Positions 16,206 to 57,804 of a DNA stretch of 64,000 bases are shown here, one piece after another. The translations under genes were made by a program, and so were the position numbers. Origin of the DNA: Pseudovirgaria hyperparasitica (taxonomy: Eukaryota); assembly GCA_010093815.1 (NCBI GenBank), contig ML996578.1; one strand, given 5' to 3'. Below the pieces are notes generated by a model. That model saw only the letters and a list, made by a program, of their open reading frames with translations. It made no database searches and had not been told where the DNA came from. Position 1 is the stretch's first letter. Every line of letters begins with the position of its first letter.

Positions 16206-17767
16206 TCAATCACCGCCCAGCAGCCCAGCCGCATTCCACACCGTCGTCCCAAACTGATCCAGATTGAAGCACCACAGCCCCAGATTTCTCAACAGCGCAT
16301 CGTCCTCGACAACGCCATTCCTCACGCTGCGCAAGTGTCCGATTGTCATGACTTCACGCCCGCTCTTCGCACGCAGATACTCCTGATACTTGCGCTCCCA
16401 CTCGATGCGCGTGCGCGCTTCCCACAGATCCTTGGTCGCGGGCAAGGGCACGGCGTCGAGCCCTTCTGGCTGTGTGGACGGAGACGGAGATGAGGTGGAG
16501 GTGGGCGTGATGCGCATGTCGAGAAGGCGACCTAGGATGAACAGCAGGATAGTAGTGCGACGCACGCTCTCGGCGTAGATCCATTCTTCCCATGAGGGGA
16601 AGCCGCCGGACTTTTCCTTGTCGCAGAGCAGGCCGTACCGTTGGAGGACGCGGTTGGCGACGATCTGTAGATGAGAAGCATTAGCATTAGCGCCATAGGC
16701 ATGTGCACGTCATAGACGACGACAAAAGACAAGAACGTAATGAGAAGACAGACTTACACCGAGCGCAACGACAATCGAACCATCGCACTGCACCTTCTGC
16801 TCGTCCGTAAGCAGACTATACATCAGCGTATACAGCGCCATCGTCTGGAAGCACTCGAGCAGCATCCACTTGCCATAGCCCTCAAACTACACAGAAAAAA
16901 TTTCCATCAGCAAACTCTTCAATCTCGAACAAAAAAAAGAGAATCCCACTGCCCCCCCCCCCCTTTCCTTCTCACTCAGACACACGCAACCACGTGACCC
17001 ACCTCGCTCAGCATCCTCTTCTGCTCATAATGCCCCGTCGTGCTCAGCAGCCCGAAATTGTTCACCGTCGTCGCAAGACTCATCTGCACCACCCCACACG
17101 CATTGTCCAGCGGGCCGTGCCAGCACACATGCTTGCCCTTGCCCTCACACTCGCGCGTGCCCGTCCGCAGACACGTCGCGTGGACGTACGGCGGCAACGC
17201 CAGACCCTCTACCAGCATGCGTGGCCACGTCGCCAGCGAGCCATGTACGACGCGGGATAGCAGTGCGGCTGAGGCCGTAGATGGGGTGCGCGCGAGCGTG
17301 AAGCGCGGGTTTGCGGACGTGGGGTCTGGGTCGAATAGGTGTGGGCGGTCGGACGTAGATCCGGATCCAGATCCAGAGCCGGTGGTGGATGAGGAGGAGG
17401 GACCGGACGGGGAGAAGGTGTCGAGGTCGAGCGGGCTGCCGAAGAGGGAGTCGAAGGGGGCTTCGGTGGTTTGGTAGTTGTTGTATGCTCCGGGGGCGTG
17501 CTCGGTGGGTATTGTGGATGTGTGGGATGGTGGCACTTGGGCTGTGGTGGTGAAGGAGAAGCCGTTGTAGTCTGATGATGAGGGAGCTGCTGCTGTGGAT
17601 AGGGTTTCGTCTCGTTCGCGCAGAGGTTGTATGTTTGGGAGTGTGACGTCCTTGTATATGCATGTCGAGCCGCGAGAGGTACAGCGGGTGCACGTGGGGA
17701 AGGTTAGACTGCAGCGGGTTTTTGCGGCGCGACATTGCTCGCAGGACTTTTTGCGCGAGTAGGACAT
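16206..17767 (-). CDS. Zn(II)2Cys6 transcription factor; introns 16887-17002 and about 16665-16757
   Basis: RKKSCEQCRAAKTRCSLTFPTCTRCTSRGSTCIY binuclear cluster. C-terminal WEEWIYAESVRRT and PLPATKDLWEA motifs join in frame through canonical introns. Confidence 0.88.
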
Positions 17768-29125: not shown

Positions 29126-30087
29126 GCTTGAGGTGATGCGAAGGTTACTAAGACGTTACGGCAATGATCAATTTCAGCGTCTTCCTAGTACTGCGGACTG
29201 TGGAAGTATGATTGTACGCGCGCCTTATACCTTCACGGCTCCTTAGGCCAGTGTGGAGAGGTATAATATAAAGGCGAGAGTCGTCTTGTTGAGGTCGACG
29301 CTATTTGCCAGCAGACAGCGTATAGTGCAAAAGTGAAGTCTAAGAATCCCCAAAGGACCGTAAATGTCGAAAAGACTGAGCAACAAATGTTTATACGAAA
29401 GCGAAGTAATGAACCACCAATTAGTGCAGCGCAAGCGCGTACAGAGCCCCACGGAGCCTTACGAGTGGCTCGAAACTCGCAGAGACAGGGCTGTGACTTG
29501 TGTGTTTATGTTCGGTTTCTCGAATAGACGCCCAAGGAGGCAGCGTGGAGGGGATGATTCGAAGAAACGACGTCGGCGCTAAGTGAGAGGAGGATGTTTT
29601 AAGGACGAGGTTGAAGATAGGTAAGCGGGCGAGCGATGGCGGGGGAAAGGCTAGGCGATGGCAGTGGGCACTAAGTAGGCAGCGCAGTCGCGAATGACTG
29701 GAAATGGCGGGAGAAGAGGAGGTAGCCAATGTGCGTTTCGGCGAGGTTGTGTAGGTGGTATAGGTATAGGTGGTGGAGGTGGTGGAGGTAGGTTACAGAT
29801 TACAAGCAGGTAGTGTCGTGGGTAGTGGTTCTTGTGGAATGTTTTCTGTACGGAGGGCTATTAATAGGTCAGCACCAGGCGGCCGGCTGGACCGTTACTC
29901 GAGACGAAGAACGAAGACAAGAGTGTGTGCGCGCGCGCAAAAGGGAACGATATGAGAATAAGAATGATAATAATAATGGAGAAGGGCGTACGATGAGAGG
30001 AGAGATACCAGTAACAAGTAAAAAGGACCCAAGTCAGTAGGTGGTAATGAGTAAGTAGTCGGCAAGGAAACGGGGCGGCGTCGCGAG

Positions 30088-30228
30088 ACAGAGCAGGGCA
30101 GAGCAGGGCAGAGCAGGGCACAGCACAGGACAGACACAAGCGCAGACGCAGAACAGACAGAACAGACACACCACACACACACACACGCACACACACATAT
30201 GCACACACACACGCACACGCACACACGC
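30088..30228. repeat. (CAGAGCAGGG)n and (CA)-rich microsatellites
   Basis: Visible directly. They generate the spurious VCVC-type ORFs in the track. Confidence 0.85.
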
Positions 30229-30821
30229 AGGACCTGGTGGTGTAAAATGTTCATCAGGCGAGCGAGTCGAAGTGTTCTGTTTCTTCCAAGGTTGTTTCAG
30301 AAAGACGCTAACATGTTCGATTCCCCACCCGCGCGAGTCCTTGGGATTCGCTGCCTAGACCCGCCACTGCTTCAATCAAATTGCTGCCCCGCGATCCCGG
30401 CCAACCATAACTCGCCGTCTCTGCCGTTTTCCACTCCAGTCCTGCACGTCAACACTACTACTGTACTATTATTTATTAAACATCACTGCCCTCGCCCGTT
30501 GCCAACGTGGAAAGACTTGCGGCATTGTCAGTCCAAGCTCTGGCGCAAGTGGAGCCTCTCTAGCTATGCACGTTGGCTCATTCTCGGTCGCATACTTTGC
30601 AGGGGAAGAGAGAGAGAGAGCAAGAAGAAAACCAGATGAATTACAGATCGCCCACTCTTCTTCGTCGGAACACTGTTAATTCTCACACCTCTGATAGATA
30701 GTGCGAAAAGAGAGGCTTCTGTGAGACTGTACGGCATCCATCTCCAGCAGGGCGGTGAGGGAGCTCTCCACCTTGCCACCGACCATTGGGGAGGTTTCAC
30801 GTGAGGGGATACTGCAGTACC

Positions 30822-30953
30822 TGTGGGATTCCTATTAGGTAATCCCCGTTACTCAGATCTTATTCAGCGTTAGGCTGGTATATATAGCACTTAGATAGAC
30901 TTAGTAGACACGTTAATCAATTTTACCACGTCTAATTTACCAAAGTTCCCACA
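30822..30953 (+). repeat. 5' LTR (132 bp)
   Basis: TGTGGGA...TCCCACA termini; 127 of 132 positions identical to 39646-39777. Confidence 0.97.
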
Positions 30954-30955
30954 TC

Positions 30956-30962
30956 TAGTAGC
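30956..30962 (+). other. Putative primer-binding site
   Basis: TAGTAGC 2 nt after the LTR. Reversing one TG>TA change gives TGGTAGC, the start of the tRNA-iMet-type PBS of Ty1/Ty3. Confidence 0.45.
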
Positions 30963-31394
30963 TGAAATCTGGTTTTTATCCTCCTAGGGAGGCTATCGCT
31001 TTAGCGATACCTCCTAAGGGGTAGTTATCTTACCCCTTATATAAGGGAACTCGTTAAAAACATTTAATGCTCACGATAAACTATATAACTTACTAGATAA
31101 TAATAAGAACGAACCTAGAGTCTAACACGAAAACCCTTCTCTAAAGCGATACATCCTAATTTTAGAGATGGAAATTACGGTAATAAAGCTTAACGACTAA
31201 ATTCGATAGTCCTAGCGGATAGTAATATATTATAAAATAAGCTAAAAGAGTCACGTAAGAAAAATATATATTAACTCCCCCTATGTCCGCGATAGATATC
31301 CTAGCTACTCGTTAATATAAATTAACGCCGTAATTCTAACTCGGAAGATAATTATTACCCTAGGAAACGCCTTCCTTACCTAAGCTATATTAAG

Positions 31395-32672
31395 ATGTCT
31401 TCCTTATAGAACCCTAATTATAATAGCGATGTCTCTATAGGAGGAGCTAATACTCTCTAAAATATAGGACGCGCCCGTAATGAGCCGTTAAACACTATTA
31501 ACGCGCTTACCGCGCTCCTTAATACCAACCCGGCTATAAGGGACCTTACTAGAGACGCTCGTACGTTAGTACTAATTAATATATATACTAATCGACTCGA
31601 GTCATAAATAAGGAACGACTATGTTACTCGAGAAGAACTAGTAAGAGACTTTAATAACCTCCTCCTTAATAACCCTAACTAGGCGAGCCTAGCTATACTA
31701 GTAAGAAGAGGCCGTATCCTACTCCGAGCACCCGATATATACTTAGAAGAAACTAGAGATAACGCCTACGAAGAATAGTGCTTATTAATCTAGGAATAGA
31801 TTTATACTATAGAATTAGTAGAGCGCTAGGAAGCTATACCTAAGTTCGAGAAACTATAAATCTACGGGATATATATATTAAAGTATATCCGCACCCTTTA
31901 GCGTAGCCTTATAGAAGCCCGTGGACGTAATAACCTAGGTAGTCCTTAAATACTAGACGGCTTCCTAGACGTTATACGTTAAATATATATCTCTACTAAT
32001 CGCCCCGAATAGCGTAGAAAGGAATAGGAGAACCTTACTTAATATCGTTTTAGATCTACCTCGAAGCTTATTAACGCTATCGTTAAAAAGGCACGACTCC
32101 TACGACCTATACCTTCTAAATATAAGATATAGCGTAGAATTCTAGGCGCCCTTAAGTCTAAGGTTTAACGTAAGATCGAAAAGTAGCCCTTTCCTCCTAT
32201 AGGATTAGGAGAGTAGTACCTATAGATGAAGAGGCTAGAGGAAGCCTTATATACCTACTCTAGAAACGAATACTATAGGCGGGAGGCTACTTATTATATT
32301 AATACTATATATTACTAAGACGAAGAGGAGGAACCGGAAGAATTCGAACCTTCTAAGGACTTATACATATGCGAAGATAAATTAGGCGACTACTCTAGAG
32401 ACAAGGGTAAGCTCCACGCGTTCGTGAAGCGTTAATAGAGTAACCGAGGCCGCGGTAGAGGCTAGAACCGAGGCCGAGGCTATAGTAAATACTAAGGGGG
32501 CTCGTTAAGAGCTCTTAACGAAACCCAAGAATACTTTAACTATAAGAAGTTAGGATATATCTCGAGATTCTACCCCGAAAATCCGACTCTAGGTAAGCTA
32601 GCCTACGTTACTACCGAGGACGACGCGTTAAGCGTCTTTAACGAAGAGGCCCTAAAAGCTAGTCGCCCGTAG
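31395..32672 (+). pseudogene. gag: gag (RIP-mutated) with CCHC zinc knuckle
   Basis: ATG 31395 is in frame with tactttaactataagaagttaggatatatctcgagattctac (about 32532-32573), which de-RIPs to CFNCKKLGHISRFC. An RG-rich stretch precedes it. Confidence 0.8.
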
Positions 32673-35600
32673 TAGATATAGAAGACACCACGAGCGACTA
32701 TAAGAGCTTCTATACTAATAATACTAATGAAAATAAGATAAATATATAGGACTACGAACATATTAACGCGCTTTATAAATCGCTAGAGAGTGCCTACTAT
32801 TATTAAGAGGAGTTAACGGACGTTATTAACGATCGCCTCTATTAACTAAACTCCATTAGTAGATAGTTACTAGAACTTAAGGCTTACGTAGGGGAAGTCC
32901 ACCCCTAGAGGGTTTTAGTCCTTATTGACTATGGGGCTAATAGAACATATACGTTAACGAAGGTTACTAGGCGTCTAAAGCTAGTGCCGTAACCTGCCCC
33001 CGTAATACGTGTTAAGCTTCCGTTAGGAGCCCTAATAATAAGTCGAGAAGTTATAAAAATCCCTCTTTATATAGAAAGCTTTACTTACGAAGTCTCCGCG
33101 AGAGTACTCGACCTTAAGGGCTACGATCTAATTCTAGGTTATAAATGGCTTTACGAATAGGATCCCGATATATCGTAGAGATCCTATTCCCTAGTAATTA
33201 GGAGGCTAGTAGCTCGAGGAAGGACTAAGGAGTATCTCCTTAAGGGGATTCCCGCGTTAATCGATATTAACTTATAAGGAGAATAAGTACTAAACGTCCT
33301 TACCGCTAGCTAAGCACGGAAATAATATCTAAATGGCTATAAGTAAGGTGTAATATGGTTTATTAGGAAAGACAACCCTCCTATACTATAGGCACCCGAC
33401 CTAATACTATAAACGGTTTTAACGGAGTACTAGGACGTCTTTAAAGAGAAGCTACCTAAAGGACTACTACCTTCGAGATAATAGGACTATAAGATAGATA
33501 TAGGAGACGGCCGACCCGTTAATAACGCCGCCTACCGTCTCTCCCTAGAATAAATCGCTAAATAGTAGAAGTAGATATAGGAGCTTATCGAGCGAGGGCT
33601 TATCTAAGAATTAGAAAGTGCCTAGGGTAGCCTAGTACTTTTCGTACCCAAACCCGGAGGCAAATAGCGAATATATATTAATTATTAAGTACTTAATACA
33701 CTTACGTGTAAGGATACGACCCCTCTTCCGCGTATAGACGAATGCCTACGTGCCTTCGGCTAGTTAATAGTATTTAGTAAGATGGACTTAACCTTAGGGT
33801 TTTAGTAAGTACGAGTAGCCGACGAAGACGTCCCTAAGACCGCCTTTAATACGATTCACGGTAAATACGAGTTTAAGGTAATACCGTTCGGTCTATTAAA
33901 CGCACCTACCATATTCTAAAAGATAATAAATCGAGTCCTTTAACCCCTACTATATAAATCCGTGGTTATATACCTTAACGATATTATTATCTTTTCCGAA
34001 GATATAGAAGAACACGCTAGAGTACTATTAAAAGTACTTACTCTACTCCGTAAATACCGCTTACTTACTAATCCGGAGAAATATAGTTTTAGCTAGACCG
34101 AAGTTAACTTCTATAGATACCACGTCTTATAAGGATAACTTCGCCCGATAAAGGATAAGATTAAGGTAATTCGCGAATGGCTAGAGCCCACGAACGTTAG
34201 CGAAGTCCGATAGTTCCTCGGCCTAGCGAATTATTATTAGAGGTATATCCGGGGATTCGCGAGTATCGCCGTACCCCTAATAGACCTCCTTAAGGAAGTA
34301 GACCCTCTTATCTATAAATAGAAATATAGGTCTATTCGATAGACGCTATTAACGGCGTTTACCTTTAAGACTCTAAAGAATGCCCTATGTTCCGAACCGG
34401 TTCTAGCTTAACCTAATAAGACTAAGCCCTTCTATATTAAAACGGATATAAGTAACTATGCGATCGGTATAGTAATCTACTAGGAGGATCCTAGTAAGTA
34501 GTATTAGCCAATCGCGTTTAACGGACGAAAGCTTAATAGCGCCGAGCTTAACTATCCGGTTCATGAAAAAGAACTCCTTACTATTAAACACGCCCTACGC
34601 ACTTAGGGATACCTACTAGAAACAAAGAAGACGACGATCCTAACCGATTACCATAGCCTATAGTTCCTTAAGTCTATAAAGGAATAAGGAGACCGTGTAG
34701 ATAGATAGATCGATGAGTTCGGAAGCTTCGATCTCGATATAAAATATCACCTAGAATCTAAGGCGGTAGTACCTAACGCCATTAGTAGAAGGCTAGACTT
34801 CTAAGGCGAGATCTCCGCGATACTATTAAGTAAAGTTAACGAACACGTTCTTATAGCCTAAATCATCGAGTTCCTAAAAGGAGCCGACCCGATAGAGTAT
34901 ATACTAAAAGTCTCTCCTAAAATCCTATCTCGACTACGCCTTGACGCCGAGAGTAAACTTTAATATAAGCTATGGGATTTTAATAATAGTTAAGAAGATT
35001 TAGCGGAAAATTCAGCACCTTATATCCCGGAATAATACCGTAAGTCGCTAGTAGAAACTATATATTAATAATTCGGTTACTTTATATGGCCCGGACTACT
35101 AGGAGCCCTAGAAAAATAAGGCTAGTAGTTTAAAATGAAGAAAGACGTAGAGGTAGTCGCTTATAATTACCGTTAATGCTAATTAGCGTAACGAGTACTA
35201 CCAAATCCATAACACGAGAGATAGTTTTATAGGGTTACACGCCGAGCACCCTTTAAAGAATAGGGTATCAACTTTATAGGCGTACTCCCCACTACGTATA
35301 ACGGTAATAGTTAGGTGATAATAGTAATTAACTACGTAACGGGATGGTCTATTATATAGGCAGTCCCTGAGGCGACCGTAGAGTCCGTCGCGAGGTTCAT
35401 TTACGAATAAATCTTTATAGATTTTAGACCCCCCGCCGCACTAACCTTAGATAACGGTTAATAGTTCCTATTAAGAGTGGTTGGCGTACTACTACGCATC
35501 CTTAAGACGGAATATAAACTTACCACGCCTTATTACCCTCGTATAAACGGAAAGGTCGAACGCCTTAATAGAACCTTAGGAGGCATCCTTACCTATATAT

Positions 35601-36997
35601 ATATAGGCGAACTAGTAACCAACTAGGACATATACTTACCAGCCGCTGTTTTCGCCATAAGGATCCGACGACATAGGAGTATAGGAGTTAGTCTATATTA
35701 TCTAGTATATAGATAGTACCCTAACTTACTAGGGAACATTCCTAGAGAAAAGGATAAGTTAATATCCTTTAATAAACTTATTAAGCGAGTTAAGAAAGTG
35801 TAACACGCTAGGACGCTAGCGCTAAATAAACTACTTATGGAAGCCGCTCGCCGAGACCTTATAGATCCGACTCGGCTTAAACCTAAAGACTAGGCGCGAC
35901 TACCTATCGGTCAAATCGTTTTACTAAAGAATGAATAGAAAACGAAGTTTAAAACGAACTACTTAGATCCCTATAAGGTTTATATATAACACCCCTTAGG
36001 TATATACGCGCTAGAAACACCTAACGGACGTATCCTACGATACCTTATATATAGTAATAGACTAATTACGGTAAGAGGTATTAATAAGCTAGATAACTTC
36101 TAGACGAGATAGGAGATTAACTTATAAATATCTAAGGAAATTAGGAATTAAGTAGTACCTTACTTACTAGACATCGAGAAGGTTTTAGAGAAAGAGAAAC
36201 CTACCCTATATTAGACGACTCTATCCTCCCTTCCTAAGAAGGAGTAGAACCGGCTATAGTAGCTACGGAGTTAATAAGAGTTAACGTACGAGGGCGTACG
36301 TTCGTTCGTAGTAGGGGAGAGCTCGATAGACATAGATATTACACGTTAAATTAGGCTTACTAATATAAGAAATCGATATAAACGGAGAGCTACCGTAACT
36401 ACGTTAATCGTACTAGTGCTAAACGTTATTAACGAACTAAGAAATATACTAGAAGAATAACACGAGAATAGCGGAGCGATATAACCGCCGATAATAAACA
36501 TTAAAGAGAGCTATGATGCTCCAAGGGTAGAGGAAGCCTAAACGATAACTAAGAAACCGATAGATAACCCGTTAAATAAGATTAATACGATAGAGGAAGC
36601 CACGATAGAAGTAAGACAGAAAGAATTACCTAAAGAAATAAGCTTAGGAGACGAGTTTAATGATACACGAATGGACTTAGATAAGGATATCCAACTAGAA
36701 TATAAGAATCCTATAAGTATAGATATAGACTCGGATATAGAAGAAGTGTTAAAGGAGGTTAACGAAGTAAATAAACAACCCCTAACCGACTCGGACGTCC
36801 CTATACGGGATCTTATAGAAAGCGAACCTTACACGCGAAAGAGAAAGTAATCCTATATAGATGAACGTAGTAGAGAAACCTAAGCGGCTATAGCTAGCGC
36901 GTTAAGATAAGTTAATAGATTAGAGGGAGAGAGGTACTCTCTACGGAAAAAGATATTACCTTTAAAGCTATTATAGGAAAGCTTAGAATATAACTAA
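32669..36997 (+). pseudogene. pol: pol (protease, RT, RNase H, integrase, long C-terminal tail), RIP-mutated
   Basis: Motifs checked in one frame: LID.GA 32921, YLDD-equivalent 33971, TTPYHP.TNGKVER 35522, RYSLR 36932. Also seen: PLPRIDE about 33722, KTAF, (M)PFGL.NAP, NYPVHEKELL about 34550. Ends are approximate. Confidence 0.93.
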
Positions 36998-37266
36998 CTT
37001 TAGTCTTTCCCTAATTATCTCCTTTATATATAGTACTACTAACCCCCCATTTACTTATTTAGAATATATACGGCCGTTAAAGAAGATTAACGAGCCTTAG
37101 AAATTACTAGGAGGTTAAAGAAAGAAGACGTGGACTTATAATGACATTATATAAGTCTAAAATCGCTATTTAAGAACCGCAAGACTAAATAGAGATAAAA
37201 GAAAGCCGTTAACGCCTTTTGACGCTTAATAAGATGGGGTATTATTATAAAATAGAAGCCGCCTAC

Positions 37267-39262
37267 TTAGTCCTAGACCTTACGAGTAGAATTTAGTGGA
37301 TTCTTCATAAATTATACTAATACCTTCTCGCCCTCCTCGGGCATGCCATTATTAATTAAGAACTTATATAGTAGCCCTTAAGGCGTGCGGCTAACCTCGC
37401 TAAACGCGTTTATTAGACGACTAAACCAATCTTTAACGGCTTCGTTAAGCGGAAGTCCTTCATCTTTAAGGTCCTATATAGGATAAATAGAGATGATACT
37501 CGGGTTAGGAGGTATAGTATTATTAAAGCTAGGAACGAGGACCTCCGGACCGCCGTAATACATCTATTCTATTATAGCTATAACCTTTTAATTAGCTAGA
37601 GATTACACGAGATATAGATCTAACTTACGAGCGAAGGACTAGCCTTAGAGTTTAACCTAGTCTCCTTAAGATCTAATAACTTCTTTTAACGAAGTTTAGT
37701 AGCCGAATACTTTCTAGTGGCCTTAGTTATCTCTATAAATAAAGACTACTCGGTATGTTAGCGCTTTTTAATAATATTACGCTCGCCACGGTATACTATA
37801 GGAACGCGTTAAACCTATTAAAAGCCTTTAACGATATAAAGGAATAACTTATAACGCGATATACTATAGAATTTCCCATTCCCTTAGTGGAAATAGTTTA
37901 AATAGGTACCTTTAAATAGTAGGAACCCGTTAGGAAAAAGCTACATATACTCCCTAAAGATGCCTTTACTAGTAGAATAAGAACTATAGGCGCTCTCGCT
38001 AAAGTGCTAGTATATACCGCGAGCTATTATACCTAGGATAGCCGGAATAGTATAGGGATATAACCTATCTAGGCGTTTCGAAGGATCCCGAAAGATTCCT
38101 CCTCCTACCACGATATTCTAAGAATAATAGTAGTTACTAAACTTATCCGTTATATAGAACGGAAGTAGATTCTTCGGAATTAAGGCGTGCTAACCGCTGG
38201 CGTACGCCTTAATAAGGCCATCGATAAATTCCTTATAGAGCGCTCCGTTAATAGGAGGGTCCGAGAATAGCCACCCTAGGATAAGTTAGCTAACCGTTAA
38301 AGATAATTAACGAGATAAGGACTTACTCTAGTAAGCTAACCACTATATAAACTTAATAGACTTCCCCGAAAAGAAGTAGTAATTAGATTAAATTCAGAGG
38401 CCTATGCGACCTACTACTTCGATCTCGGCATCGCCATAGCTATTAAGTTTATTTACCATAGGTTACGCTATCGTACTAACCTTACGAGAAGCTATAGACC
38501 CCTTTCACTTCACGGGAGTCTTCTTAACGACCTTATTAGGACTTTTAAGGTCTATAATAGCCAGCTTAGAAGTTATAGAGCGAGTTTTAGGGCTGTTAAA
38601 CACCTTTAATAGAGTCCTTACGGCACTACGGGTCTTTACTAGAGTCCTAGGTATTCTAGGACGAGAGCCTAGATAAGAATTAGGAACTAGAATCTTAATA
38701 TAAGACTTAGCGACTTACCTTTCTTAGTTACCTTAGGAGTAACTATATCGCCGAGCTCGTTAACTTCGATTAACGTATTACTATTAAGGTCTAATAACCT
38801 AGAGCTTTCCCTATCTTTATTTTTAGGATAGAAAATATTATTAGAGTCTTCCGATAGGTTCGCGAACCGACTAGCTTTTATAGGGGCTTCGAAGGGCTCG
38901 TTAATAGCTATTACTAATCCTTAAGAGGCCGGAGCCTTAACTTTAGCCTTAGAGACCTTAGGTTTAAGGCTCTAACCGCCTTCTTCGATTAACTAAGCTA
39001 AAGCTTTATCTTCTAGGTCTAGTTCTTAAAAGAATAGCGAACCCTAAGGCCCGTTTAGATATAGATAGCCGTAGGCTATCTTTAAGTAACTCTTACGAAC
39101 TATATAGTTAACCTATACTTAAGGAATAAGGTAACTTAACCTACTATCTAGAGCACCTTCATTCGCCGCTAACACTTTATTAAGCGATAACTAGTTAGGA
39201 TTTCCGTATAGAGGACCTAAGAAAGCACGACGAAGATCCTTATTTATAACTATATCCGCTAT
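37267..39262 (-). pseudogene. Antisense five-exon accessory gene inside the retrotransposon (about 597 codons; DUF3716-like Cys motif), RIP-mutated
   Basis: Exons 39262-38719, 38668-38327, 38275-37853, 37795-37629, 37584-37267. Intron phases 1,1,1,0 join into one frame. Internal stops are TAA/TAG (RIP of CAA/CAG/TGG) plus two TGA (consistent with CGA). Confidence 0.8.
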
Positions 39263-39301
39263 AGGAAGTTTAAGTTAGAAGGGAAAAAGATAAAGTTAAA
39301 G

Positions 39302-39311
39302 TTTATATATA
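39302..39311 (-). promoter_or_regulatory. TATA-like box for the antisense gene
   Basis: TATATATAAA about 40 nt upstream of the inferred start. RIP also creates TA runs, so this is weak evidence. Confidence 0.4.
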
Positions 39312-39632
39312 TGAAATTATAGTATTAATCGGAGTAATTTCTAAGTTCACAGGAGTTTCAGCTATGTTATTAGATATTATTAAAAGGATTTAGCGCTGGA
39401 AAAAACTAAGGAAAAGGTCGAATTAGTTAAGAAATATAAGGTTAAAGGACGGTAGAATATAGGAATAGTAAAGGTAACTATTTAGCACTAAAATAAGCTC
39501 GGACTACTACCCTTACGCGACGTGTCGCTAATACGGCCTAGCGCTAAAGAGATTTCATACGCCTACCTCCCTATATTATATATTCTAACTCCGTTAATCG
39601 TCTTTAACGGCCTCGTAGAAGCTTATATAATT

Positions 39633-39645
39633 AGGAGGGGGAAGA
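39633..39645 (+). other. Polypurine tract
   Basis: AGGAGGGGGAAGA directly abutting the 3' LTR. Confidence 0.9.
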
Positions 39646-39777
39646 TGTGGGATTCCTATTAGGTAATCCCCGTTACTTAGATCTTATTTAGCGTTAGGCT
39701 AGTATATATAGCACTTAGATAGACTTAGTAGACACGTCAATCAATTTTGCCACGTCTAATTTACCAAAGTTCCCACA
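39646..39777 (+). repeat. 3' LTR (132 bp)
   Basis: Direct repeat of 30822-30953. Confidence 0.97.
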
Positions 39778-40120
39778 TACCCAACCATGCTGCCAGGTCC
39801 ACCTAACTGAAGCGCGCAACTCCTACAGAACACAGACACACGAAAGGTCTTTCGTTGCATCTCTTCACTTTCCCTTCCAAGAGTTCCTTCATGTAGTCGT
39901 TTTGGTTGCAACCATTCAGCCAAAGATTGACCCATCTTTGCAGCCTGACGTCATATGGTGACTTAGGAAGATACCGTGCCGTCTTGCACAATTTCTCGCT
40001 TCAAATTTCATCATATTTTCTGTCTGTCCTTTCAGTAACGATCGGCTCACCACCTCACGTGCTTCGAATTCCATAGTCAATCCTTGTGGAACAGTATTCT
40101 CGAGTTAGAAGCCAAGCATC

Positions 40121-50695: not shown

Positions 50696-52399
50696 TCAGG
50701 AAGGTTTCGGATTACCTCCAGGCTTCTTTGCATATATTACACGACTGAAGCGCACGTTAGTTATGAGAAATAGTCTTTGTAGGAGTCGGGTGATGTACAC
50801 TTCTTGGTAATTCCTCAGCCGCCGATTGTGGACAGCAGCCTTAACCTGACGTATGTGCTGCTGGACTTCCTCGTAGGTCCACTGAGAGATGACTGATTAG
50901 CCGGGCGAGACACCAACAGAAGACTGTGACTACGTACTCCGAGATCCCTTGTAAATAATGCGAGGCACCAACTTTCCATAGAGTCTTCCCAATTTCTTAC
51001 GTTCCAACGGCCTATGTTCTTGAGTCGTGCGTTCTTAGGCCATAGTCCGATTGGCCATACGTGGGCTTTATCGATTATATCAACGAAGCCTGATGCATGT
51101 TAATTCCTGCCTGTTCCATGACACTTGGTTGGTTCTTTGACACATGTCAGACATACCAGCGGCTTGCATATTGCTCGCAAGCTCGTTAGCAATATCGAAA
51201 CGTCTGCCATGCTTCTTTCCACAGTCGATCAAGTTGTCCATGAGTGTATCAAATCCATGGTTTTCTGGGTCTGTCGGTCCGGATGTGAATGAAAACACTT
51301 TCGCGTCGTACTCCATATGCTCTATGTAGCCACCTGGCTTGAGCGCTCTGACGATACAGATCAATGAGGTTCGAGTAATTCCACGAACTGTGAGACCATC
51401 ACTTACTTCAGTGCTTGTTGATAGAAGTTTATCCAAGATGTGGCACACCCGGCCAGGCCGCGCACATGTATGTAATCAAAGCTTTCTGCAGGATAGGTCC
51501 ATTCATCGGTGCAGTCGTCAATCTCGAAAGTCACGTTGGGAGGAGCGCTCGAGATCTGTATGGGCGACAAGTCCGTCCCTTTGTATTTGTCGGCGATTTG
51601 GGACATTCAGGAATGGATCAGATACTCACCTATGACTTCCGCCGAGGGATGAAGGTCCGCAAAATCACTAGACGTAGTATTAGCTAGAAACATCTCGTGA
51701 ACGCAAGTGACACACATAGCCCACAGTCCAGTACCTGTACCAACGTCAAGAACCCTCTGCGGATCTTGCAATGGCGCCGTGTATAGCTTGTCATCTAACG
51801 TAAGGAGCCAAAGATGATGCCTGCATCGGAGTCAATCTTAGACATGTATCACCACAAATTATACTTACTGGACGACCTCCGCGTTGCCAACTGTTTCATC
51901 GTTTGGTTGATAATACTGTCCATCTCCTGAGAGATATTAATGGGCTTGCCAAGCGAGTTGGAAATCTTTGTCTTACGCTGAAAAAGGTCAGCTTAGCTGC
52001 CTTTCCAAATCGAATATCAAAAGAAACTCACGTATCCCTTTTTGTTTCAGCTTGATGACTATGAATAGGTTTACTGATCGCCATGGGAGTAATAATGGTA
52101 GACTTATCCAGCTCATGTGTCTACATGGTGGATTCGAAGAGTCTGGGCCCGGGACATAGACTTACATGATACCTCCTGCCATTCTCATACACGTAGTCTG
52201 TTGCCGAAGATGCTAACGTGCGACCCCTGGAAGAGATTAGTAGCCAGAGCCGGAGACACGGAAATACGTACGACAAAAAGGTCTCGCGATCGTCCTCATC
52301 GCTTTCGTCGTACGAGTAGGATTCATCCTGGGCAACATCATTATGGTGCATTAGCTAGCGTGCGCTCCAACCTACCGCTTTCAGGTCGATAGGTAACAT
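50696..52399 (-). CDS. SAM-dependent methyltransferase (LaeA-like fungal family), about 12 introns including two micro-exons; start approximate
   Basis: Assembled protein contains YVYENGRRYHGYRDGQYYQPNDE, HHLWLLTLDDKLYTAP, RVLDVGTGTGLWA, GTDLSPIQ, FEIDD, FDYIHVR, LKPGGYIE, WPIGLWPK, YAKKP. Confidence 0.88.
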
Positions 52400-53617
52400 T
52401 TCCTCTCCAGACTCGCCTTTTGAAAAATTCAGCACTCTGTCCCAACGAGAGGCTGCTCATCTGTCGGAGTACGGAGTGCGGATTGCGAGTTGAAGGGGTT
52501 AGTGGGGAACGGTTTGCTGATGGAATGCTTTGATAGGCGCCGCTAGAGACGCCAGTCAAGTAGTGGTCTGTTCAAAAGCTGTATCAAGGCGAGCGAATTT
52601 GGTGGATCGTGGTTAGTTTGAACAACGCGAATTCGATTAGAATCGACGTGGTGGTGGAGAGCCGAGACAGCAATGCTAGGTACAGGTAGCCTGACCATGG
52701 ACTCGGGTCGAGGGATGAAAATGTCACTCTCATACGAGTTGTGATTCGAAGACATGGGCATCTTCGGGCCGGTATTACAATGGCGGACAGGCCGCCTAGA
52801 ACGACTCCAGTGTCGCTCTGCGCCAGTGCAACTTGCGTCTATGATGTTCATGAACATCAACGCAGAATCGACTAGGAATAGAATTCAAAGTGCGCACCGT
52901 CTCGAGAAAGCATGCTAACATCCCATCCACAGGTCCCGAGTAGACGGGCACCTCAAAGGTCCATCAGGCTGCGGCACATGGTGTCTAGACCTCGGAGACA
53001 GTCTAAGCACAAAGCACATGTAGGCCAAGGTGCATGTCGCTCCGATATCATCATATCCAGTAAGACAAGCTGTGATGCATTATAAACATATGCATGCTCC
53101 ACCGCGCCGTGCCGCGTTTTGGTGCAAGGCCCCAGCAACCAGAGTGAAGGGCTGGCTGGGTCCAATCCATGTTACTCCTTAGAATCGCTGGCCACAGTCT
53201 CGGGTCTGCGAGCAGGCTACCAACCTCATGGTGGCGGGCATGAACTATTAATCCCGAGCAACAACACAAGATCAGAGTATCTCATAGACTGGATTGTTTC
53301 CTTATTGTTTCCTTTGCTGCTGTCCTTCGCAATTTTCCGTGTCTCGGAGTATGTTATATACATCCATCAATCCATCCATCCTTTCCACCCACCATCGCCG
53401 ACGTCGCCAAAATGCATAACCTTTGCCGTGCTCCTGTACTGGACAAGCATGCATATTACCCCAACGCCTTGACCATTTGATCGTCCTCTTCACGAAATGC
53501 TGAATGCATCGTTCCACTTATGCTTTGAGTTGAAAGGCTTAAAAGGCCCGAATATCATAATATCGCAATGCCGCCCGGATGAATTTTGCTTCGACCAAAC
53601 GCCTCGCATATGCACTA

Positions 53618-56588
53618 TTAACTGCTTCCGCTTCCACGTTCGGCATCGTGTAGTTGTCTCAACTGACTCTTGCTGGCCTGTGACTTGACCACTCTCTTCT
53701 CATCCTCACTCTGACTAGAAGCTTCATCGTCAAGTCTACCACTCTTGGACTCACGGCGTAACCTCTCTGCTTTATCCTTCAAGGCCTTGGCCTCTTCTGC
53801 TGCCCTTTGTGCGCGTACCTGCTTCTTCCACATGTTTGCATATCGGCCTTTCTTCTCGAGAAGCTCCTCATGTGTTCCTCGTTCCGCGACTCGCCCTTCA
53901 TGCAATACTAGGATCTGATCGGCTGTCGTTATAGTGCTGAGACGATGAGCTATCACGAGCATGGTTCGGCCATTTCCTAACGCAGTCAATGCCTTTTGGA
54001 TGTGTTCTTCCGTCTCCGTATCGAGTGCTGCTGTGGCCTCGTCCAGTAGGATGATCCTTGGGTTTTTCAAAATGGTACGAGCAATTGCCACACGTTGTTT
54101 TTCACCACCGGACAGACGTAGCCCACGGTCTCCGACTTTGGCCTCGTATTTGTCTGGATATGAAATGATCTTGTCGTGTATACTCGCAGCACGACACGCT
54201 TCGTAAACTTCTTCGTCGGTCGCATCTGGACGTGCATACTTGAGATTGAACATGACTGACTCATTGAAAAGCACCGTGTCCTGCGGTACTACACCAATGT
54301 GTCTTCTGAGCTGGTCAATGGTGATGTCTTCGACGTCGTGTCCATCTATCTGAATGTTGCCAGAAACGGCATTGTAGAATCGAAAGAGTATCCGGAAGAC
54401 TGTGGATTTTCCTCCACCTGATTCGCCCACGAGAGCTGTTGTCGTTCCCGGAGCACAATGGAAATCGAGACCTTGTAACGCCGGCTTGCGAGTATCATAA
54501 GTGAAATGGACATTGTTGAATCGGATGTCGCCTTCACAGCTAGGAAATTGGCCTGCGCCAGCCTTGTCTACCACTGTGGGCTGTTCCTTGAACAGCTCCA
54601 GCATACGCTCCGAGTTGATCATAGCCGACTGGATAGTTCGATAGAAAGTGCCGAAAAAGTTTAGTGGACTTTGCAGCTGACCGAAGTATTGAACCAATGC
54701 GGAGAAGGAGCCCACGTCAAGCCTTGAAGTCGTCACTTGATGCGCAGCCAGAAAACATGCAACCATCAAACCCAACATAAATACCAAATTCTGACAGACA
54801 TTCATCAAGTTGAGAGAAAGAAGTACTTTGTATTCCGAGAATTGGAATTTGTTTACGGCTTGTCGATATCTGTTAAATTCGAATTCTTCGGCATTGAAAT
54901 ACTTCACGTTCTCGTACGAAACCATGGAGTCGTTCCTGTAGTACTTAGTATTTACGCTAGACTTTCAGATGGACCATTTGCTTACTTTACCGCTTCTTCT
55001 TCACGCCCGGCATTGACCATCTGTCTGCGGATGTCGGCACGCCACTGAGCGAGACGAATTGTAATGTAGACGTACCAAAACGTGACAACAGCTACCACAA
55101 GAGCATAGTAAGCATCATACTGAGTCAAGAAATACCCAAAGGCAAGAACTAGGTCGACAAGCATCGGTAAGACATTGAATGTGATCTGCTCGAGGAATGT
55201 GTTGATTGCAGTCCCCTTGTTCAGAGCTGACACGACCTCTCCGGTTTTCTTGCTTATATGAAATTCGAGGCTCAGACCATGGACGTGTTCAAATGCAGCG
55301 ACAGATAGCTCCCTGTATGAGTATTGACTGATCGGGATCCATAGAGTCGACCGAGAGGCTGCTAGTAGTCCGTTGCTTCCTTGGAGTAGTTTCAGAAAAA
55401 TAAATACGCAGATGGCTGCCCAAGGAGTGTTGGACGGTCCTCCGCCTTGAGCATCAACAAGAGCATTGGTGATGATTTTGACTTGGTTAGGAACCGCCAG
55501 ATTCACCACACGCTGCAGTAAGACCAGGACAAAACAAGCAACCACCACGACCTTGAGCTTTGTATCCTTTGATGGCCAGAGGTAAGGGAAGAAAACCGAA
55601 TAACCACGGATATACTCCCACCATCCACGTGCTGGCACAGAAGTCGGCCGTACCCAACCATCTGTGTGAGGGGTGGTACCGTGAGCGCCATTGCCCGGAA
55701 TAGAACCGTAGCCTTGTGCGGACCCGTTTGCAGCTCCATTCGGGGTTCCGTTTTCGGTAGACCCCTCATCCAAGAGTCTGGCTGTCTCGGGTGTGTTGAG
55801 GCGTGCAAATCTTTCTCTTCGCCTTTTCGTATGCACGAAAATGACATAAGATATCATCATGAATATGAGCAAGAGCACTCTTATTAGGTCGATGGTGACC
55901 TCGAGTATTTCCCATTCTGTCATCTCAGTCCGCAGAGGCCCTTTGCTATCACCAGCGCTGGGATCATTGTGGGCGTGTGTGTAGTATTGGAATGATAGTG
56001 CCAACAGAGCCACCTCATATATGGTTGCAAAGAACCATGTGTACATGTGCGCCGAGGTTGGTGAAGGCGTGCCATCGATCAAGGAGATGAAGAAGAGAAG
56101 GTAAATGAAGAAAGATCCGATGAGGTAGACCTGCAAGTGGCCGTTAGAATACAAAGGCTGGACTGGCTTTGAGAATAACTCACCACTGTCGGTTGTCCAC
56201 ACCAATACTGGTGCTCACGCTCAGCTACAGCATGGATAACCACATTCGCCGAATTTGCAAAGAAGGTCAGGGCTGTAGCCACAGCGAGGGTGTAGAAGAG
56301 ATGCTTCTGCGATTTTGAAACGTCGTCCTTGATTTTGGGCTTCGGTTTGTTGTGAGTAGGGTGATGTGCAGGTAGTGGTTTTCCGCCAGGACCAGTCTTG
56401 GACGTCGGAACGTCGTTGTTTGCCGGAGGTACAGCTCTGATGCTTCGATAAGTGAAGGCTACCAGAAACACAAGGAGCAGTGCTATTGGGTAAGCATAAT
56501 GCAGGTACATCAGAGCCACACCAATTTTTTCCTGCGAGGTCATGTCAAGGGTAGTCCTAGGTCTTGCCATGGTAGAAGAGGTAGCCAT
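53618..56588 (-). CDS. HMT1: Heavy-metal tolerance half-size ABC transporter (HMT1/ABCB6-like); introns 56131-56183 and 54936-54985
   Basis: N-terminal membrane extension, FFPYLWP, FEHVHGLSLEFH..KKTGEV, Walker A GESGGGKST, signature LSGGEKQRVAIAR, Walker B ILLDEATAALD. Confidence 0.9.
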
Positions 56589-57804
56589 GGTGACAGACGG
56601 CAGCTCGACCGTACTCCCGGATGAGCAGGAAGTAGAGAATGATCAAGAAGGAGAAGGCGAATGGACGGTGCAGCAAACACAGCCGGCTATGACATGGCTT
56701 GGTCGTGTGCTCAGGATCCACGGGAGAGCCGACGGTGGTGGCGGTCGAGGTTCGGTGATGGTGGGATGGACGAAGTGAAAGAGGTCTAGAGGGAGCGGTA
56801 GGGCTCAAGTTTAAAACAGCGTTGGAATTCCAGAACCAGTCCTCTGGGAGAAATGGAGTCTGATACGATGTACAGAGCGATACAAAGCATGCACGTCTGA
56901 AGGAGCTTGGCCGATGTTCGGAATTGAAGATTAGTGAAGCGTATCGGGGAAGACGGGAGAAGCTCAGGATATACGACTAATGGTGCAGATAGCGCCAGTC
57001 AAAGAGTGATTAGCTTCGGTTTGAAGCTAGTTGAAGTGAACAAGACCTGCAAGTGGCACGAGCAGAACCGGGACGAGTAAAAGTGAGAGTGAGAGAGAGG
57101 TGGGAAATTGAATGGTGAAGCGAAAAGAGAGAGAGAGAGCAAGGAATGATTAGGAGCAAAAGAAGAAAGATAAAAGATGGACAGGGAAGTTGAGGAGCTA
57201 GTTGTCGAATCTGGAGCATCGTATGCAGGTGCAGGACGGCAGGCGGAAGGCGGAAAGGTGGTGGGTGGAAGCACTGGAAGCCCTGGAAGGTGATAGGATG
57301 GAGGATACTTGGGTAGGTACCAGGGCTGCGGCATGCCGGTGCCTCGCCGTACTACCTGTGTGTGTCTAGAATGTTTAGAGTGTCTAAAGTTGGGTTGTCT
57401 ATAGTAGGGTGTGTTTGAAGTCTATCAACATATGCTAATCAATCAATACTTTTGAACACGGCACGGGGCACGACGAAGACAATGATGTGGTGACAGATGA
57501 TACTATTAACCATGGTACGATGGGAGTGTGACAAGCAGTAGTACCTCTCTGTAGGTGGGCGTGAGTGTCGATAGGAGGTGGAGGTGTGGTAATATGTAGC
57601 TGATAGGTAGTCAACAAGTAATAATTTAGTGCCCAGACAGGCGGTGATGGTGGGTGGATGCGGTGGATGTGGTGGAGGTGGTGGTGCCAGGTGGGCGGGT
57701 GTCCACGGTGCCAGGTGGTCGTGGGGTTGGCAACGTGGAAAGGGGGTCAGTCATGATCCTGTGCAGTAGTATCAGATAGCCATCCATAATTAGTCTAATA
57801 GAGG

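Follow-up and report, generated by a model that had tools for sequence, protein, structure and literature searches.

Internal exons of a single nucleotide are already known from Arabidopsis, Fusarium and Coprinopsis. One was described in the Arabidopsis APC11 gene (Guo & Liu 2015, PMC4674806), where it was tested by reporter constructs, and the available text of that report also takes up recursive splicing at ratchet points in its Discussion. A one-nucleotide exon has since been described in the CYP621A P450 genes of Fusarium (Nelson & Syed 2026, PMC12940212), in a paper which, in its accessible part, calls itself the second example and the first from fungi; there the exon, a G, provides the second position of a Gly codon and is aligned across 20 orthologues. 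In addition, the entry '1 nt, 13 exons in 13 genes' appears in an annotation of Coprinopsis cinerea based on long reads (PMC12230235, available text). A related arrangement is that of the stwintrons, the spliceosomal twin introns of Pezizomycotina, in which, according to the available portions of the reports, the donor, branch or acceptor of an external intron is split by an internal one, and the external intron is canonical only once the internal one has been excised (PMC8469720, PMC12403724).

Here we describe a site in Pseudovirgaria hyperparasitica at which a C at position 51977, on the minus strand of the window (the whole stretch of 64 kb of DNA that was analysed), is very probably (we put the probability at about 0.88) a genuine internal one-nucleotide exon directly after a 6-nt exon, in a gene for a LaeA-like/UMTA methyltransferase. 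The original prediction of this exon called such exons very rarely documented, a description which still holds, with fungal precedents now published (PMC12940212 and PMC12230235, as far as their available texts go). A literature search, with supplements outside its scope, found no published link between Pseudovirgaria and a one-base exon.

Exon structure and transcript of the methyltransferase gene

The elements of the gene and of the tiny-exon site, which spans 239 nt, are given below as they fall under the reading preferred here, with positions counted in the window.

50696..52399, minus strand: methyltransferase coding region, with 13 exons, 12 GT-AG introns and 331 aa (contig joints and coordinate-joined translation)
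52166..52226, minus strand: exon 3, ending ...GAGAATGGCAGGAGGTATCAT, last letters ...TATCAT, coding for ..YENGRRYH (sequence, contigs, spliced ORF)
52038..52165, minus strand: intron A, 128 nt, GTAAGT...AAAAAG, phase 0 between the H and G codons (sequence, contigs, tiling)
52032..52037, minus strand: 6-nt exon GGATAC (Gly-Tyr), its letters found in the spliced contigs and placed here in the sole tiling with GT-AG at all three introns
51978..52031, minus strand: intron B, 54 nt, GTGAGT..GCTGAC..TTTTTCAG, phase 0 between the Y and R codons
51977..51977, minus strand: very probable one-base exon C, first base of the Arg codon CGA in the conserved Y-R-D-G stretch
51927..51976, minus strand: intron C, 50 nt, GTAAGA..ATTAAT..CTCTCAG, phase 1 inside the Arg codon
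51869..51926, minus strand: exon 6, starting GAGATGGACAG (GAGATGG), coding for (..R)DGQYYQPNDETVGNAEVVQ (sequence, contigs, spliced ORF)

The succession of intron A, GGATAC, intron B, C and intron C can be read directly in the window on the minus strand, with all splice signals present: GAG AAT GGC AGG AGG TAT CAT, ending at 52166, is followed by intron A, GGATAC, intron B, the C, intron C and exon 6, whose codons run GA GAT GGA CAG TAT TAT CAA CCA AAC GAT GAA from 51926. The coordinates, lengths and motifs that had been predicted for intron B, the C at 51977 and intron C are all correct. Seven coding nucleotides, GGATAC-C, are split by three short U2-type GT-AG introns of 128, 54 and 50 nt, the last two of which lie within the 45-67 nt range of the gene's nine other short introns. 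The single base stands in the context cag|C|gtaaga, with AG before it and GT after it. Intron B carries GTGAGT, CTGAC and CAG, and its likely branch motif is the CTGAC at 51991-51987, with the A 10 nt from the 3' end; the signal set of intron C is likewise complete (GTAAGA, TTAAT, CAG), with the TTAAT at 51940-51936 as the likely branch motif, both branch motifs being assigned by consensus only. The 3' end of intron A is weak, consisting of AAG in an A-rich setting with no clear CTRAY motif.

Evidence from transcripts comes from two public runs, X1 and X2, which derive from one sample of one study, their kind not being on record, and in which the fractions of sampled words present were 0.41 and 0.40. 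Because every intron is absent from them and about 0.4 of the sampled words are present, which is the share expected from exon-only sequence, we infer that both runs are RNA-derived (cDNA, not genomic). When the contigs of X1 and X2 were aligned to positions 50700-52420 of the window, all 12 introns of the gene were found to have been removed and all exons to be covered, and the exon pieces listed matched the window with 0 differing letters and 0 gaps. Nine of the ten joints listed show CT..AC when read on the plus strand, which corresponds to GT..AG on the gene strand, and the tenth is a compound joint. At this joint the X1 contig (2667 nt, depth 143) connects 51926 to 52165 with GGTATC on the plus strand (GATACC on the gene strand) between them, the aligner having matched the first of the seven letters, a G, to the g that opens the GTAAGT donor (52165); in X2, this junction is again read, from either side, by loose ends at 51926 and 52165. 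The mature transcript is TATCAT-GGATACC-GAGATGG, with seven letters between two large exons, and this is exactly the junction that had been predicted and was looked for in the spliced contigs. The C of GGATACC is contiguous with neither flanking exon in the assembly. Introns A-C have no contig coverage in X1 or X2, although contigs as such drop rare isoforms, intermediates and the order of splicing.

The X1 contig seems to reach about 300 nt beyond 52420. Within 52460-52320 (minus strand), a short frame begins at an upstream ATG (52460) and, with intron 1 spliced out, is closed by a TGA near the beginning of exon 2; it runs across the main start at 52399 in a different frame, and may represent a uORF.

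Joined by their coordinates, the exons give an open frame from the ATG at 52399 to a stop ending at 50696, and the resulting spliced ORF of 331 aa reads YENGRRYHGYRDGQYYQPNDE. The product is a predicted LaeA-like/UMTA class I SAM-dependent methyltransferase: it contains the glycine-rich SAM motif VLDVGTGTGLW, and Pfam Methyltransf_23 matches the deposited product of the locus with an E value of 3e-19 (69.8 bits against a cut-off of 27), as do related class I SAM models. Protein searches with one exon and then the deposited product as query returned 2276 relatives at E <=0.001, the best of them 51-53% identical and belonging to Dothideomycetes and other Pezizomycotina, with close orthologues lying outside the sample. 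When the C is included, the product reads YENGRRYH-GY-R-DGQYYQPNDE, and the family spacing H-x-Y-x-x-G-x-Y-x-x-PND is restored, in line with the original prediction; NGR.YH, four residues and G.Y..PND are found in this arrangement in 93 of the 120 homologues listed, mostly as H-A-Y-R-D/E-G, and E, N, G, R, Y, H, G, Y, P, N and D of the motif are invariant in an alignment of 30 homologues. In several of these predicted homologues, for instance P0005, P0039, P0058, P0061, P0026 and P0056, inserted, odd or truncated sequence is seen in or just before H-x-Y-R-D/E-G, and this aberrant motif may reflect unrecognised introns or tiny exons in other fungi.

The public protein of the locus, identified in the protein search, is a 310-aa 'UMTA methyltransferase family protein [Pseudovirgaria hyperparasitica]' (P0001), and it misses the one-base exon in the way that had been expected of gene predictors. 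In the deposited model an ATG within intron A serves as the start (MSWISLPLLL...), GGATAC is translated in a different frame (..KQKGI) and 52031-51927 is taken out as one intron; the first 47 residues, including YENGRRYH, are absent from it. The N-terminal ENGRRYH-x-Y-x-x-G-x-Y-x-x-PND motif is present only in the RNA-supported form, and the deposited model is contradicted by the spliced contigs. Such exons thus corrupt public annotation, here to the extent that the deposited protein starts in an intron and is without the most conserved N-terminal motif of its family.

Consequences of mis-splicing and alternative sources of the C

Errors at the site would have the following effects on the reading frame.

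C skipped: stop after 76 aa
Both tiny exons skipped: stop after 74 aa
Intron A retained: stop after 61 aa
Intron B retained: stop after 53 aa
Intron C retained: stop after 93 aa
6-nt exon alone skipped: frame kept, Gly-Tyr lost

That omission of the C would break the methyltransferase frame had also been predicted, and the stop after 76 aa confirms it; skipping would therefore switch the gene off. It can be imagined from this, in extension of the on/off switch raised in the original prediction, that the cell varies the skipping of the C, and that the skipped form, degraded or truncated, sets the level of the enzyme, an idea which adds to the one-base-exon reading. In work cited in the available text of PMC4674806, a third of the transcripts lacked an artificial one-base exon. 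Nothing in the present data, however, speaks for regulation, and the only junction assembled is the one that contains the C, albeit from one sample and from contigs, which drop rare forms. Inclusion of the C looks constitutive in the single sample available, and we consider a regulatory switch unlikely.

Another explanation is that the assembly is without one C, such that the true DNA would read GGATACC|GTGAGT or CAG|CGAGATGG and 52031-51927 would be one ordinary 105-nt intron. The same transcript as in the contigs would result, the deposited model excises exactly this interval (105 nt) as a single intron, and the 128-nt intron A provides a precedent in the gene for introns of more than 100 nt. 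Against this, the internal cag-C-gtaaga, the CTGAC 10 nt upstream and the T-run would all have to be coincidence, both halves of the 105 nt have lengths typical of the gene's introns, and the contig exon pieces listed show 0 differences and 0 gaps with respect to the assembly. The interior of the 105-nt stretch 52031-51927 was shuffled 20000 times with dinucleotides preserved, and any AG-C-GT with both halves of at least 40 nt arose in 190 of the shuffles, one with additionally a pyrimidine before the AG and a GTR.G-type donor in 4, and the full set of YAG-C-GTRAG, an upstream CTRAY and both halves of at least 40 nt in 0. The coincidence is therefore of the order of 1 in 5000 or rarer, and as it would be needed in addition to a base-specific assembly error, we regard this explanation as very improbable. 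In the 64-kb window, YAG-C-GTRAG occurs twice on the minus strand and 0 times on the plus strand, one of the two being the site of C 51977. The other such string, gcgcag-C-gtgagg, lies at 16326 on the minus strand.

Colinear placements of the transcript segment on 52190-51900 were enumerated, with no more than three introns, each of 20 nt or longer, and alternative splice sites restoring the frame without C 51977 were also sought by hand. Sixty placements were found, 0 of them with fewer than three introns; GT-AG is present at all three introns in 1, at two in 4 and at one or none in 55. The sole all-canonical placement combines GGATAC at 52037-52032 with C 51977, and it is this unique placement, together with the contigs, that bears out the C as a one-base exon between two GT-AG introns. 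Derivation of the extra C from another C (e.g. 51996 or 51991) by non-canonical splicing, or from some other non-GT-AG tiling, has a negligible chance of being right: although four tilings are canonical at two of their three introns, and two of these use C 51996 or C 51991, each after AG, these two have TA or TG donors and would need TA..AG or TG..AG introns, and the other two are one-base shifts giving TA..GG, whereas 12 of the 12 introns of the accepted tiling are GT..AG. A 19-nt exon after the CAAG at 52051, which would keep the frame and correspond to the LKQKGIR of the deposited model, is contradicted by both the contigs and the enumeration.

Putative order of intron removal

Intron definition is the usual mode of recognition for short fungal introns. 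Our working model for the one-base-exon reading is that introns A, B and C (50-128 nt) are each recognised separately by intron definition, and that the one-base exon would never be recognised as an exon, and would amount to no more than the nucleotide that separates the 3' site of B from the 5' site of C. Only 12 nt lie between the likely branch A of intron B (51988) and position 51976, where the donor of intron C begins; because of this proximity, the presence of two spliceosomes on B and C at once seems implausible, and the two introns would be removed one after the other, with the neighbouring intron that has not yet been removed serving as the flanking 'exon'. An order of A, B and C, 5'-to-3' and co-transcriptional, would be our guess. 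The RNA fold of 51915-52180 is ordinary (z +0.62), 149 of 200 shuffles folding at least as well, and therefore no structural aid to splicing is apparent.

The original prediction had envisaged that the exon might be handled by ordered or stwintron-like two-step splicing, and only the first part of this suggestion survives. GT, a branch-like motif and AG are intact in both introns of the primary transcript, so that no splice signal is interrupted, and a nested all-canonical tiling was found in none of the 60 placements. Because neither order of removal would create or destroy a splice signal, the arrangement is not a stwintron; ordered two-step removal of complete introns, in contrast, is likely. 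At a ratchet point AG and GT are juxtaposed (AG|GT) with no base left in the mRNA, and such points serve very long introns. Here AG and GT are separated by one base, the C, and because this base is retained in the mRNA the site is not a ratchet point.

Possible intron gain and comparison with known systems

Metagenome contigs were scanned with the family alignment, using patterns that would have caught the architecture of this gene, and 80 loci (L001-L080) were obtained, of which L012, cut at a contig end, was excluded as uninformative. An intron between the H and G codons was found in 0 of the 79 informative loci, the DNA being contiguous there, and comparison of intron positions in orthologues, which had been put forward as a check, did not recover the one-base-exon arrangement in any of these 79 relatives, which are at most 53% identical. 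Loci L019-L021, L038, L046 and L049 lose frame just after the G-x-Y-W codons, which suggests that an intron lies close by, though not at the same place. The matched span is longer than the coding length by at most 90 nt in 72 of the 80 loci, leaving room for about 0-2 introns, and the positions of introns 3-9 are spanned unbroken in 74-80 of the 80 when the RNA-supported protein is aligned. Some of the metagenome contigs may be transcript-derived; many of the loci can be taken as genomic, because more than 30 extra nt are present in 50 of the 80 and the frame changes in 24. Since H and G are contiguous in 79 loci and the positions of introns 3-9 are mostly unbroken, the three introns of the site and most of the other introns of the gene are, on the alignments made, not shared with the sampled relatives, all of which are distant (<=53% identity).

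The genes around the methyltransferase, as assigned by Pfam, are the following.

53618-57400, minus strand: ABC transporter, directly upstream of the methyltransferase and on the same strand, ORFs of 448 and 410 aa
58975-63045, plus strand: large WD40-repeat protein, ORF of 1356 aa
43206-44777, plus strand: LtrA-like membrane protein, ORF of 523 aa
46484-47707, plus strand: GH16 glycoside hydrolase, ORF of 407 aa

About 1 kb of methyltransferase coding sequence is divided by 12 introns, and the neighbouring genes have long uninterrupted ORFs (407-1356 aa, up to about 4 kb); within the 64-kb window, such an intron load seems peculiar to the methyltransferase gene. Comparison by blastn of the 12 introns with the window and with each other gave only chance matches of 7-13 nt. 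An introner-like origin of the introns was rejected, there being no repeated intron copies within the 64 kb. We tentatively suggest, as a possibility that is less likely than not, that the pair of 6-nt and 1-nt exons arose by three lineage-specific intron gains within seven coding nucleotides, in a gene-local burst beside existing introns. If there was such a burst of intron gain, expression of the gene now depends on strictly ordered, recursive-like removal of three abutting introns. With 12 introns here against few or none in relatives, the gene is a candidate for studies of recent intron gain.

Positions 30001-40000 of the window are AT-rich, with a GC content of 0.36-0.44 against about 0.50-0.56 elsewhere; AT-rich blocks occur in RIP-mutated repeats of filamentous ascomycetes. 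Two YAG-A-GTAAGT strings are present in this block, at 34042 and 38327 on the minus strand.

The site in Pseudovirgaria resembles Arabidopsis APC11 in its internal exon of one base, apparently constitutive here as it is there and flanked by two GT-AG introns, and in a public annotation that is wrong, and sequential intron-defined or recursive removal is also what the Discussion of that report proposes (PMC4674806, available text). It differs in that APC11 is a plant gene of another family with longer introns, and in the nature of the evidence, reporter constructs having been used for APC11 whereas the Pseudovirgaria exon is known from transcript contigs; the adjoining 6-nt exon is a feature of Pseudovirgaria, and none is described for APC11 in the part of the report available (PMC4674806). 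The Fusarium CYP621A exon is closer, in that it too belongs to a filamentous ascomycete, supplies a base of a codon in a conserved motif, is seen in public RNA reads and is missed by predictors (PMC12940212, available text). There the base is the G of a Gly codon, whereas here a C opens an Arg codon of a methyltransferase gene, with a 6-nt exon beside it; the Fusarium exon moreover has support across orthologues, while that of Pseudovirgaria is not conserved among the sampled relatives (PMC12940212, as far as its text was available). The annotation of Coprinopsis cinerea indicates, in its accessible part, that fungi repeatedly have exons of 1-3 nt and that gene models fail where these are overlooked, although in that case in a basidiomycete with an intron-rich genome (PMC12230235).

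Stwintrons have in common with the present site that two U2 introns are excised consecutively within one intervening region, but here no element is interrupted, both introns are complete and one exonic base stands between them (PMC8469720, PMC12403724, available portions). The likeness to recursive-splicing ratchet points lies in a 3' site that abuts a 5' site and in stepwise removal, and the difference in the one base kept and in introns of 50-54 nt. Because the site is small (239 nt) and the fungus has short introns, it would be a handy natural substrate for studying how the spliceosome handles splice sites 1 nt apart and the order in which abutting introns are removed. Relative to the one-base exons described before, what is new here is the occurrence in a dothideomycete and in a methyltransferase, the C in first position of an Arg codon and the 6-nt exon directly beside it, and one-base exons with RNA support thereby extend to a second ascomycete class and to a further gene family.
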